From Escherichia coli (GTDB taxonomy: Bacteria; Pseudomonadota; Gammaproteobacteria; Enterobacterales; Enterobacteriaceae), in the NCBI RefSeq assembly GCF_016026235.1, contig NZ_CP065613.1: a stretch of 64,000 bases of DNA, one strand, 5' to 3'. This document shows positions 33,001-36,000 of the stretch, one piece after another (position 1 is the stretch's first letter; each line of letters starts with the position of its first letter). The position numbers are program-made.

Positions 33001-36000
33001 TGTAGAATTTTCGATGGTTCACCTGAATAAACCTCATCCAGAGCTCTAACGTATTCGAGAGTTTCAGCGTTGGACAACCAGTGATCCAGACGCTTCCCGA
33101 AACGTTTTGCAATATCAGTGGCATTAATCCAGCCATCAGTATTGAAGCGGATAGGTTCGCCTTTGTAATTCAGTGGAACGATATTCATAGCGTCTTACCT
33201 TTTAGAAAGATGAGCCTGTTCGCACAGAAAAGCCGCCCCGAGATGGTCGCCACCATATACGGCAGTTCTCAGGCTCAGCTTTCTGAAAGACTCGGGATTG
33301 TTACGCGCTGCGATGCGCGGTTTACTGCGGACATATAAAAGCCCCGCAAGTGCGAGGCTCATTAAATTGACTTTGTGATTTGCAAAAAAATTATTTCAGG
33401 CATTGCGTCCTGATGTATTCCTGCAGGTAGTTAACCTGCGCGGTTATCCTGTCGATTCCACTTCGGAGACGGTAATAATTGAGTTCAGCATCTGCTGTAA
33501 GTCCTGGGCTTTCTCCATAGCCCATGCTGCTGGCTCCGGTCGTTGACTTTGCACAGGTGGCGGCGACTTGCAGGCGCTTACGACCAGCAGAAACATCAGC
33601 ACGGAGACTTTCGATAGTCGCGTTAGCATCAGCAAGCTCCTTTGTGTATCTGGCGTCGAGTTCTGCTACATCACGTTGACGCTTCTGCATATCAGAGATG
33701 ATGGATGTGGCCTTATCGCGCTGCTCTTTGTAGGTAATGGCGTTATCACGGTAATGATTAACAGCCCATGACAGGCAGACGATGATGCAGATAACCAGAG
33801 CGGAGATAATCGCGGTGACTCTGCTCATTGATCTATCCCCCAACAGGCTAATGCGCTTTCCTGGTCACGACGAATAACCTGTCCATAGCAGTTATTTGAA
33901 CGTATGCGGCAATCGCGCCCAACATCTTTTATCCACCAGCGAATCGCCTCGCATGCGCCCTTACGATCACCGGCATTCAGCCGCTTATAAAACGTCGACG
34001 GGAAACACTTACCGGGGCCAATGTTATAGGGGCAAAATGACGCTATACCCGCTTTTTGTGGTTCGGTCAGTGGTACTTTAATATTGCGCTCCACCCATGC
34101 CAGCGCCTTATCACGTTCAATGGCGTTAACCTGGTCGCATTTTTCCTTCGACAGCTTCATTCCCGGTATGACAGGCTTACCATCCACCATTGTGGCACCA
34201 CGACAGATGGTCCATATGCCAGAACCATCACGGTATGCCGTTGTGTGATTACCCTCTTTTTCGTTCAGAAACTGGTCAAGTATCTGGGGAGCAGACGCGC
34301 CTGCGGCAATCAGCGCCAGAACAGCAGCCGACAGGCCGTATTTGATTTTTGCGCTCATGGATATTTATCAGGATTTATCGGCAACAAATAACGAGCCAAC
34401 TTATATACGCCTTTTAAGATAAGTCAGCCCCAGCTGGATCCAGTCATCAGGCTCTTTCTTAAAGGGGGAGTATTGAAATCACGAAGAAGAGCCTCCCGCA
34501 CCGCAGCATCCATGTCTGCACCACTGGCAAGTGCTTCAATCTCTGCCGCCACCTGCAAATACCCCATGCAACGGCCAATGCGTTTCATAACTCTGGTGTT
34601 TTCGTCTTTCAGGCATCTGATAGCGAGATTAATAATTTTCAGGCAGTGATGATGCGATGCCCGGACAGGTTTTCCGTTCTCATAAACGACGAACTCACCC
34701 TCTTCACAGGAAACCCTGAAAGGCCGACGGGGTTCCTGGTCTTTATCCGGTGCAGACGCAATAAAATCACTTTTATGCTCTTCCTCTCCGGCACTGTTAA
34801 CCGTAATGACGTACTCAGGCCGCAGGTAAGCCGCCTCTTTTTCTGACAATGCGGCCGGTAAAAACTTTTCCTGCAAAAACTTCATAAAAGTCTCGTGAGC
34901 GACTTTGTGGCAGTAATCGTAAATCGCCGCATAATGCTCATCGCGGCGTTTGTTTTCATCTTCAGAACTCACCAACGCCGACAATTTTTATTAAGCTCAG
35001 TGATTTCATTTTCCAGGTGATTGAATCGCTGATTCATTTCTTCATGCTTCATTATTTACTCTCCCCGTGCAGCCTTACGCTTGTCTTCTCTTATTTTGAA
35101 ATACAGATTCGTCAGATAAGTCAGAAGCCCCAGAAGCAGACTTCCCAGCACACCAATCGCAGCCCACTGTGATGGACTGACCTGATCCAACCACTGCAAA
35201 AACCAGTAGCCGGCACTGCCGGCGGAGGTGCCGTAGGCAATGCCCGTTGAAATTTTGTCCATGGATTTCATAGCCTCACCTCCGCAAATAACGGATGGCG
35301 TAGTTTTACACTGAGAAATGAAAGGGATTTGAAAAGAAAAAAACGCAAAAGCGGGCGAAACGATATATACAGTAAGGAAAGCACTCTATCCAACAAACCA
35401 CCCACAGTTAATCGGAATAAAAGCAGAGTGCTTATGAATGATCGCACGCCCGAAGGTTAGTATTTCTGCACAGCAATTTTGCAAAAAAAGGCGATCATTC
35501 ATAACTTAAACGTCTTTCAGTCACTCCGGGATTTCCCATCATCGCAGACTGAAAGACTCTGACTGGAGCGGGCAGCGGGAATCGAACCCGCATCATCAGC
35601 TTGGAAGGCTGAGGTAATAGCCATTATACGATGCCCGCATATGGTGCCGACTACCGGAATCGAACTGGTGACCTACTGATTACAAGTCAGTTGCTCTGCC
35701 TGCTGAGCTAAGTCGGCGCTGGCCCACCACCGAGGACTCGAACCTCGCACCGTCAACTTAGAAGGTTGATGCTCTATCCGGATGAGCTAGTGGTGGTTGG
35801 TGGCCCTTGCTGGACTTGAACCAGCGACCTGGCGATTATGAGTCGCTCGCTCTGACCAACTGAGCTAAAGGGCCGGAGGCAGAATAATAACCATATGTCA
35901 TCACATCTGCAAACTCATCTGACCACCAGCGTGTTTAACGTCCTGTACCGTTTTTCAGGCATAAAAAACCCGCCCGGAGGCGGGTTTAAGCTGTGTGGCG

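Follow-up and report, generated by a model that had tools for sequence, protein, structure and literature searches.

Four tRNA genes, separated by no more than 3 nt, lie between the late antiterminator gene Q and the lysis genes of a prophage in the 64,000-nt stretch of Escherichia coli DNA analysed here (assembly GCF_016026235.1, contig NZ_CP065613.1; the whole stretch is referred to below as the window). We consider it probable, at roughly 70%, that these genes make up a codon-supply operon in the late leader of a lambda-like, ipaH-carrying prophage, served both by a promoter of its own and by Q-dependent read-through. Such an operon would add gene copies for four minor isoacceptors matching codons that are rare in the host and over-used by the prophage, and it would be embedded in the late leader of a now defective prophage next to mlrA, in the chromosome of a Shigella or enteroinvasive E. 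coli strain.

The tRNA array and its position

ARAGORN identified four minus-strand tRNA genes and no others in the window: a tRNA-Ile2 with the anticodon CAU, of the ileZ/ileX/ileY type (35798-35874, 77 nt); a tRNA-Arg with the anticodon UCU on the phage argN-type scaffold (35720-35796); a thrU-like tRNA-Thr with the anticodon UGU (35642-35717); and a tRNA-Gly with the anticodon UCC, the same as glyT (35564-35638). The Rfam tRNA model RF00005, which has a gathering score of 29, gave the same coordinates with 70.5, 56.4, 69.8 and 64.9 bits, respectively (56-70 bits for the array as a whole). The genes are separated by A, GC and TAT (1, 2 and 3 nt, in array order), and each of them encodes its 3' CCA. 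The acceptor and T stems of all four tRNAs are fully paired, except for one A.C in the T stem of tRNA-Thr that is also found in the host thrU. In the identical DNA of E. coli CFSAN029787, RefSeq labels the genes as tRNA-Ile, -Arg, -Thr and -Gly. The original prediction, made from the sequence alone, had described four tightly packed minus-strand tRNAs with 1-3 nt spacers and had named tRNA-finding software as the appropriate check; ARAGORN accepted 4/4 cloverleaves with the anticodons CAU, UCU, UGU and UCC as claimed, and the array is confirmed as real and correctly read.

Upstream of the array lies Q (36074-36490, minus strand), an open reading frame (ORF) of 138 aa that matches Pfam PF06530 (E 5.8e-54) and phrog_79, "anti-termination protein Q-like". 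The first lysis gene downstream encodes a class II holin of the phage 21 S type (35056-35271, minus strand; PF04971, E 1.1e-35), named "class II holin family protein" by RefSeq. Q, the tRNAs and the holin gene follow one another in that order on the minus strand, as expected from the proposed location between Q and the lysis genes.

A similar arrangement is found in Stx phages (Stx2a_F349, AP012530; 933W-type), where the tRNA genes also come after Q and tR', before the late genes and on the same strand. In Stx2a_F349 the order is Q, ileZ-argN-argO and stxAB, with stxA starting 93 nt after argO. Its ileZ is 96% identical to the first gene of our array, and its argN has the same scaffold as the second (83%); the first two array genes show about 88% DNA identity to many Stx2 phages. 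Given these homologies and the shared Q-tRNA order, the likeness to the architecture of Stx phages holds. However, slot 2 of the Stx cluster carries UCG and slot 3 is argO, whereas the prophage has UCU, a thrU-like Thr(UGU) and an extra copy of glyT, and the Stx spacers are 1-7 and 13 nt long compared with 1-3 nt in the prophage. Stx phages have the toxin operon directly after the tRNAs; in contrast, neither stx nor any other ORF follows the tRNAs of the prophage, but 292 nt with a structured spacer and no credible ORF, and then the holin gene. Since the interval between tRNA-Gly and the holin gene contains no ORF of at least 60 aa, there is no toxin cargo there, which agrees with the original prediction.

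Single tRNA genes or pairs downstream of Q have been described in phages SfI, Sf6, ST64T, PS3 and P21 (PMC3636060). Like the prophage, these phages of Shigella, Salmonella and E. coli are lambdoid, and their Q gene is directly followed by one or two tRNA genes, among them Thr(UGU); unlike it, they carry Asn(GUU) and/or Thr(UGU), and none is described with the Ile2-Arg-Thr-Gly set. Our literature search found no paper describing the exact four-tRNA set.

Origin of the tRNA genes

The third and fourth genes are close to host genes: tRNA-Gly is identical to K-12 glyT at 75/75 positions, and tRNA-Thr matches K-12 thrU at 74/76, the sole changes being U16C and U20C in the D loop. The CAU gene shares 71/77 positions with ileY and 69/77 with ileX, but 54/78 with metT/metU, and is 96% identical to ileZ of Stx2 phages. 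The labels ileX-like, thrU-like and glyT-like, assigned earlier from the sequence alone, were therefore apt. The pairs C4-G69 and C5-G68 are determinants of TilS. Because the CAU gene keeps both of them (acceptor stem GGCCCTT/AAGGGCC), it is classed by sequence as a tRNA-Ile2 with an ileX/Y-type rather than a Met body; lysidine at C34 and charging with isoleucine are predicted.

The origin of the second gene is different. It is characterised by C1-G72, the acceptor stem CCACCAC, the D loop AUCCGGAUA with A20, and the anticodon loop CUUCUAA, which is the same as that of argU. A20, C35 and U36 are the identity elements of ArgRS, and all three are present. The body of the tRNA is 73% identical to argU and 60% to argO, compared with 83-94% to relatives on the same scaffold, which have the anticodons UCG, UUU or UCU; the best-known member of this scaffold is argN of Stx phages (83%). 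Across 24 distinct sequences of the scaffold, the cloverleaf is 98% paired versus 28-54% in slid controls, and 6/21 pairs show a compensatory change. It follows from the high pairing and the compensatory changes that the scaffold is a functional tRNA lineage, and judging by identity the Arg(UCU) gene belongs to this phage argN lineage and is not a copy of the host argU.

The array can thus be described as a mosaic at the level of sequence, with two genes of phage lineage (ileZ-like and argN-scaffold) followed by two host-like ones (thrU and glyT). The host thrU-tyrU-glyT-thrT-tufB operon resembles a source for the third and fourth genes (97% and 100% identical), but its spacers are 8, 116 and 6 nt long, whereas the phage thrU-like and glyT-like genes are 3 nt apart and are accompanied by neither tyrU, thrT nor tufB. 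As tyrU separates thrU from glyT in the host, with spacers of 8 and 116 nt, the phage pair is no simple excerpt of the tufB operon. A derivation of argO from a thrU-like tRNA by anticodon change was also considered and found unconvincing: argO is 71-74% identical to Thr(UGU) and 73% to argU, and unrelated tRNAs already reach 56-75% with one another.

Codon usage

Ile2 reads AUA after modification to lysidine, Arg(UCU) reads AGA and AGG, Thr(UGU) reads ACA, and Gly(UCC) reads GGA. Each of them is a minor isoacceptor. K-12 has one gene each for Thr(UGU), Gly(UCC) and Arg(UCU) and two for Ile2, so that one extra copy would mean a large relative increase in dosage. In the Stx-phage literature the rationale is likewise one of rare AUA, AGA and AGG codons (Schmidt 1997, cited in PMC3636060).

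Codons were counted in a simple greedy set of ORFs, comprising 10,423 codons of the prophage and 18,543 codons of host DNA. Four of the codons read by the array were the most enriched in the prophage out of all 61: AGG (6.2-fold), AGA (4.2-fold), ATA (3.2-fold) and ACA (3.2-fold) occupied ranks 1 to 4 in this order. The fifth, GGA, was enriched 1.9-fold and ranked 9 of 61. For the five cognate codons, Fisher p values ranged from 2e-15 to 6e-7, and the Mann-Whitney test gave p = 2e-6. The enrichment was also present in the late and early halves of the prophage taken separately. In ipaH, ATA and AGA reached 14.7 and 16.5 per 1000 codons, respectively, versus 2.9 and 2.4 in a K-12 sample. The original prediction had suggested that the tRNAs supplement AGA and AUA and that ipaH and the phage genes should be compared with the host in this regard; the comparison agrees with the suggestion. 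The same logic was applied to SfI, where a bias towards ACA codons goes together with a Thr(UGU) tRNA (PMC3636060).

Terminator and predicted promoter upstream of the array

A tR'-like intrinsic terminator lies downstream of Q on the minus strand (35961-35987). Its hairpin, AAACCCGCC-UCCG-GGCGGGUUU (35987-35961), has a GC-rich stem of 9 bp and a UCCG loop and is followed by a U run. The calculated folding energy is -18.9 kcal/mol (z = -3.1), and 0/200 shuffled sequences were as stable, in keeping with the textbook terminator that had been noticed at this place, which a simple terminator scan of the window did not list. Other prophages have an equivalent GC hairpin and T run just upstream of the array. 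A tentative pR', TTTACG-16-TATTCT (36045-36018), was picked by eye; it matches the consensus at 8/12 positions and was not reported by the promoter scan.

Between this terminator and the first tRNA, hexamers and their conservation point to a predicted sigma-70 promoter of the tRNA operon (35875-35912, minus strand). It consists of the -35 element TTGCAG (35912-35907), a 17-nt spacer, the -10 element TATTAT (35889-35884), which was also matched by the promoter scan, and a GC-rich discriminator of 9 nt, TCTGCCTCC (35883-35875), that abuts nucleotide 1 of tRNA-Ile2. Among 42 distinct 60-nt upstream contexts of relatives in IMG/VR, TATTAT ends exactly 9 nt before the tRNA in 35, and 33 of those 35 have TTGnnn at a spacing of 17 nt. 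These contexts include 16 different spacer sequences, and the discriminator averages 71% GC. In several relatives the T run of the tR'-like terminator merges into the -35 element, and the tRNAs of Stx phages are preceded by the same TTGnnn-17-TATTAT-9 layout. The solitary ileX and ileY genes of K-12 must carry their own promoters. In ileX, TATAAT ends 10 nt before the tRNA and there is no clear -35 element at a normal spacing; in ileY, TTGCGT-16-TATTGC ends 8 nt before the tRNA. From this we infer that the array has a dedicated sigma-70 promoter downstream of tR', probably active and inherited together with the ileX/Y-type gene.

The layout upstream of ileY and ileX closely resembles the ileZ-type promoter of phages, suggesting that the phage Ile2 gene may have been captured with its promoter, or that ileY itself may be derived from a prophage. 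A further promoter-like motif inside the array, TCGGCA-16-TATAAT (35650-35623), was dismissed as a chance match, its TATAAT being the D arm of glyT, which is the same in the host.

The interval between the array and the holin gene

The original prediction had placed the holin gene S directly after the tRNAs. It is indeed the next gene, but a structured spacer with a degenerate terminator intervenes within the 292 nt that separate it from tRNA-Gly. The whole interval folds with -89.1 kcal/mol (z = -4.1) and shares about 79% identity with the stretch between Q and the lysis genes in phage HK639. The structured spacer RNA (35380-35557, minus strand) is predicted to form three conserved hairpins (35557-35512, 35503-35433 and 35432-35380), and compensatory changes were seen in 10/67 predicted pairs (RNAalifold, 6 sequences). 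HK639 was the only source of a more divergent homologue in the phage collection, and the copies in IMG/VR were 91-100% identical. No Rfam family scored above noise for the 292-nt spacer or the pR'-tR' transcript, the permissive E-value mode included. The hairpins might act as a protective 5' hairpin or a processing element.

Closer to the holin gene lies the degenerate intrinsic terminator (35331-35356, minus strand), GCCCGC-UUUU-GCGuuu with a U run. Relatives have a perfect hairpin, GCCCGC-TTTT-GCGGGC-TTTTCTTTTC; the window has a mutated 3' arm, GCGTTT, which leaves 3/6 pairs and thus a weakened terminator. In the corresponding position, HK639 carries another perfect hairpin of different sequence, CCTCGC-TTCG-GCGAGG-TTTTTT, annotated as a terminator by its authors. 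In HK639 (locus L253, about 2680-2828), tRNA-Asn(GUU) stands directly after a terminator and is followed by a decayed glyT-like remnant, with the 3' two-thirds intact and the 5' third diverged, and then by the same structured spacer.

Taken together, these elements suggest how the operon might work. Transcripts would come from two sources: the dedicated sigma-70 promoter downstream of tR', from which the tRNAs would be expressed in the lysogen, and pR', whose transcripts would extend into the array by Q antitermination during lytic growth. The tightly packed units valV-valW and leuQPV of E. coli and the tRNA cluster of phage T4 are matured by RNase P alone. The array shares with them the very short spacers, which imply that RNase P separates the tRNAs and 3' exonucleases trim them, although some T4 tRNAs do not encode CCA, which all four tRNAs of the prophage do. 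Given spacers of 1-3 nt, an encoded CCA and what is known of tRNA processing in E. coli, RNase P would cut each 5' end and thereby separate the tRNAs, and the trailers of 1-3 nt would be left for 3' exonucleases. The spacer hairpins and the downstream terminator may end or stabilise transcripts from the tRNA promoter, and a Q-modified polymerase would read through the nested unit of promoter, tRNAs and terminator into the holin gene. The interpretation given in the original prediction is supported overall, and the spacer with its terminator, the phage lineage of the Arg gene and the promoter layout of the array refine it.

Distribution among relatives

Six complete E. coli genomes, including that of the enteroinvasive strain CFSAN029787, match the 1 kb surrounding the tRNAs with 100% identity, and a seventh does so with 99.7%. 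A four-slot array (at least 80% of the query covered) is present in 602/5,426 complete E. coli genomes (about 11%). Only 9 of these are at least 99% identical to the window and have the UCU form; most carry the form annotated as tRNA-Lys. The array is therefore of a known type, common and routinely annotated in RefSeq, and is an ordinary phage feature.

Two scans of IMG/VR were made. The first, anchored on the ileZ-like gene, returned at least 120 loci, and ARAGORN was run on these and on further fetched loci. It gave at least 60 arrays with CAU-UCG-UCU (the Stx type), at least 39 with CAU-UCU, at least 8 with CAU-UUU-UGU-UCC, and at least 6 with CAU-UCU-UGU-UCC (the type of the window, which is itself counted), the remainder being rarer forms. 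The second scan targeted the anticodon stem of the window type and gave at least 62 arrays with CAU-UUU-UGU-UCC and at least 31 with CAU-UCU-UGU-UCC, always with spacers of 1, 2 and 3 nt. Homology with these relatives extends from the holin gene across the array and breaks off shortly before its first gene, where the neighbours vary and include another Q type, DUF1133, a methylase and hypothetical genes. By this comparison, the array moves together with the lysis module and not with Q.

Several relatives differ from the window within the array. The body of the Arg(UCU) gene occurs with the anticodon UUU, annotated as tRNA-Lys, in phage PhiR47_1 (locus L006, 3020-3096) and in about 72/120 of the listed IMG/VR loci L133-L252. 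The anticodon loop of this slot-2 tRNA is always CCUUUAA, in which C33 replaces the U33 of nearly all tRNAs, and U73 is the discriminator; a form with U33 and UUU was not seen in slot 2 among the matches listed. In a close relative of the window array (E. coli RMDEC332, locus L007, 2865-3015; also L128), Thr(UGU) carries G42U and U43C, giving an anticodon stem of 3 bp and a broken CNG motif, a variant that resembles the signature of resistance to P2 Old. The glyT copy of the RMDEC332-type array has decayed into a pseudo-tRNA, "Val" UAC, which lacks CCA and bears a 1-nt deletion. In two IMG/VR loci (L138 and L165), ARAGORN reported CAU-UUU-UUU-UCC, with UUU in slot 3, where the others have Thr(UGU).

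Alternative explanations

With a promoter layout of its own downstream of tR', the array need not depend on Q. The tRNAs could nevertheless be strictly Q-dependent, arising solely from pR' transcripts that read through after induction, as is usually assumed for the tRNAs of Stx phages, with the promoter-like motif being inactive. We find this doubtful but not far-fetched, since the array does follow Q and tR' on the strand of the late genes, its -35 element is weak, and in HK639 the tRNA comes right after the terminator with no space for a promoter. It would leave without explanation why the -10 element, the spacing and the GC-rich discriminator are kept despite differing neighbours (another Q type, a methylase, hypothetical genes), and why the solitary host genes ileX and ileY are comparable in layout; besides, the terminator found after the array in relatives makes sense mainly for transcripts that are not antiterminated. 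Another possibility is that the array is a neutral passenger, i.e. host tRNA DNA acquired by illegitimate recombination and carried along with the lysis module without selection. The (near-)identity of the Thr and Gly genes to host genes fits such an origin, as do the decayed copies or lost members of some relatives, the defective state of the prophage and the mutated downstream terminator of the window. However, four cloverleaves are intact, the Arg scaffold shows compensatory changes, about 100 sampled arrays keep the spacers of 1, 2 and 3 nt, the promoter hexamers persist in divergent contexts, the tRNAs supplied match the most enriched codons, and the array is 100% intact while structural genes decay, which makes a passenger quite improbable.

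We also give little credence to an anti-defence supply, in which the array would replace tRNAs destroyed by P2 Old (tRNA-ThrU), PrrC/PARIS (tRNA-Lys) or colicin-D-like nucleases (tRNA-Arg), although the idea is not without precedent. P2 Old restricts lambda by cleaving the host tRNA-Thr(UGU), and phage-encoded Thr(UGU) tRNAs rescue the cells (PMC12445682); mutations in the loop let phage tRNAs evade anticodon nucleases (PMC10264068). Moreover, among the matches listed, the UUU-bearing tRNA in slot 2 of relatives always has C33 and a stem unlike that of the host tRNA-Lys, and the Thr gene of one relative has G42U/U43C with a broken CNG motif and a shortened stem. The window itself tells otherwise. 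Its Thr gene shares with the P2-Old-resistant tRNAs the origin in a lambdoid phage and the anticodon of the Old target, but not the altered CNG and shortened stem, both of which are needed, an extra wild-type thrU protecting little or not at all (PMC12445682). The anticodon arm of the window copy is that of thrU (C28-U29-G30 / C40-A41-G42, A37, a stem of 5 bp), so nt 28-30 and 40-42 are unaltered, and a role of this gene against P2 Old was rejected. The Gly gene is 100% identical to glyT, the anticodon loops of Arg and Ile2 equal those of argU and ileX/Y, and the codon match is strong. Hence an anti-nuclease role is not supported by the sequence of the window copy, but the anticodon stems of Arg and Ile2 differ from those of the host, which leaves room for other nucleases.

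Several observations weigh against the codon-supply operon that we favour. The enrichment of the cognate codons is partly a matter of the lower GC3 and general rare-codon use of phage DNA; CGG, TCA and AGT are enriched as well, with no tRNA supplied for them; and the ORF set is heuristic and includes fragments of frameshifted pseudogenes. As to the promoter, the -35 element of the prophage matches the consensus at only 3-4/6 positions, the motif may be conserved partly by descent, as many of the upstream contexts are related, and the lack of room for a promoter before the tRNA-Asn of HK639 shows that tRNAs located after Q do not universally have one. Finally, some relatives carry decayed members, such as the "Val" UAC pseudo-copy of glyT. 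Even so, the codon-supply operon with two sources of transcripts accounts best for the data, and aminoacylation and a translational benefit would be expected from it.

A bolder version can be put forward only tentatively. The array might be an autonomous, stringent-type operon, equipped with a promoter, discriminator and terminator, expressed in the lysogen and kept intact in the decaying prophage because it increases the minor tRNAs available to horizontally acquired virulence genes rich in AUA, AGA and ACA, such as ipaH close by; in addition, the slot-2 scaffold might be "reprogrammable" between UCG, UCU and UUU with C33, with switching perhaps driven by conflict with anticodon nucleases. 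The practical value of the array is small, as it is a standard lambdoid tRNA module tuned to the codon usage of its prophage. A nested operon, if true, would allow the tRNAs to be expressed in lysogens and thereby to influence how virulence cargo with rare codons is translated, and the occurrence of one tRNA body with Arg(UCG), Arg(UCU) or Lys-like (UUU, C33) anticodons may bear on the debate between codon supply and anti-nuclease function.

Other features of the prophage and its flanks

The prophage spans from about 9.1 kb to 52.5 kb of the window. ipaH, which encodes leucine-rich repeats (LRR) and a novel E3 ligase (NEL E3 ligase) domain (9164-10807), is located at one end, and the integrase gene (51253-52539), adjoining mlrA, at the other. 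The terminase gene gpA is split into two overlapping ORFs (29420-31500), the lambda-type portal gene is truncated, starting at profile position 100 (27687-28853), and an insertion sequence (IS) transposase (rve) is inserted near int (49868-50707). The prophage is defective, while the tRNA array stays intact.

Upstream of the array, Q is accompanied by NinH (PF06322). Q is annotated by RefSeq in identical DNA as a protein of 126 aa ("antiterminator Q family protein" in CFSAN029787), and it distantly matches the Q21 structures 6P18 and 6JNX (E 3.8e-8). Downstream, the holin gene is followed by an ORF at 34424-34984, the lysozyme gene, Rz with an embedded Rz1-like ORF, and a KilA-N gene. The ORF at 34424-34984 (minus strand; phrog_1085, no Pfam match) occupies a typical moron slot between holin and lysozyme, and is frameshifted or truncated at the N-terminus relative to the 209-aa version in CFSAN029787. 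Between Rz and the KilA-N gene, CFSAN029787 also has a toxin-antitoxin pair, RelE/ParE-ParD (locus L001, 3486-4020); the corresponding site of the window has just about 200 nt (33189-33390), and the module is absent.

Rfam matches to a C4 antisense RNA (80 bits) and isrK (62 bits) are adjacent at 40815-41003 (minus strand), in or next to an Ash/Rha-type ORF, which suggests an antirepressor control region similar to immI of P1/P7 within a lambdoid prophage. Just outside the prophage end by ipaH, the Shigella small RNA CssrB (230 bits) and the RNA element IS009 were detected (7897-9036, minus strand). A Peptidase-S11 cis-regulatory RNA (Rfam, 72.8 bits; 62581-62661, minus strand) lies in the host flank and is unrelated to the array.

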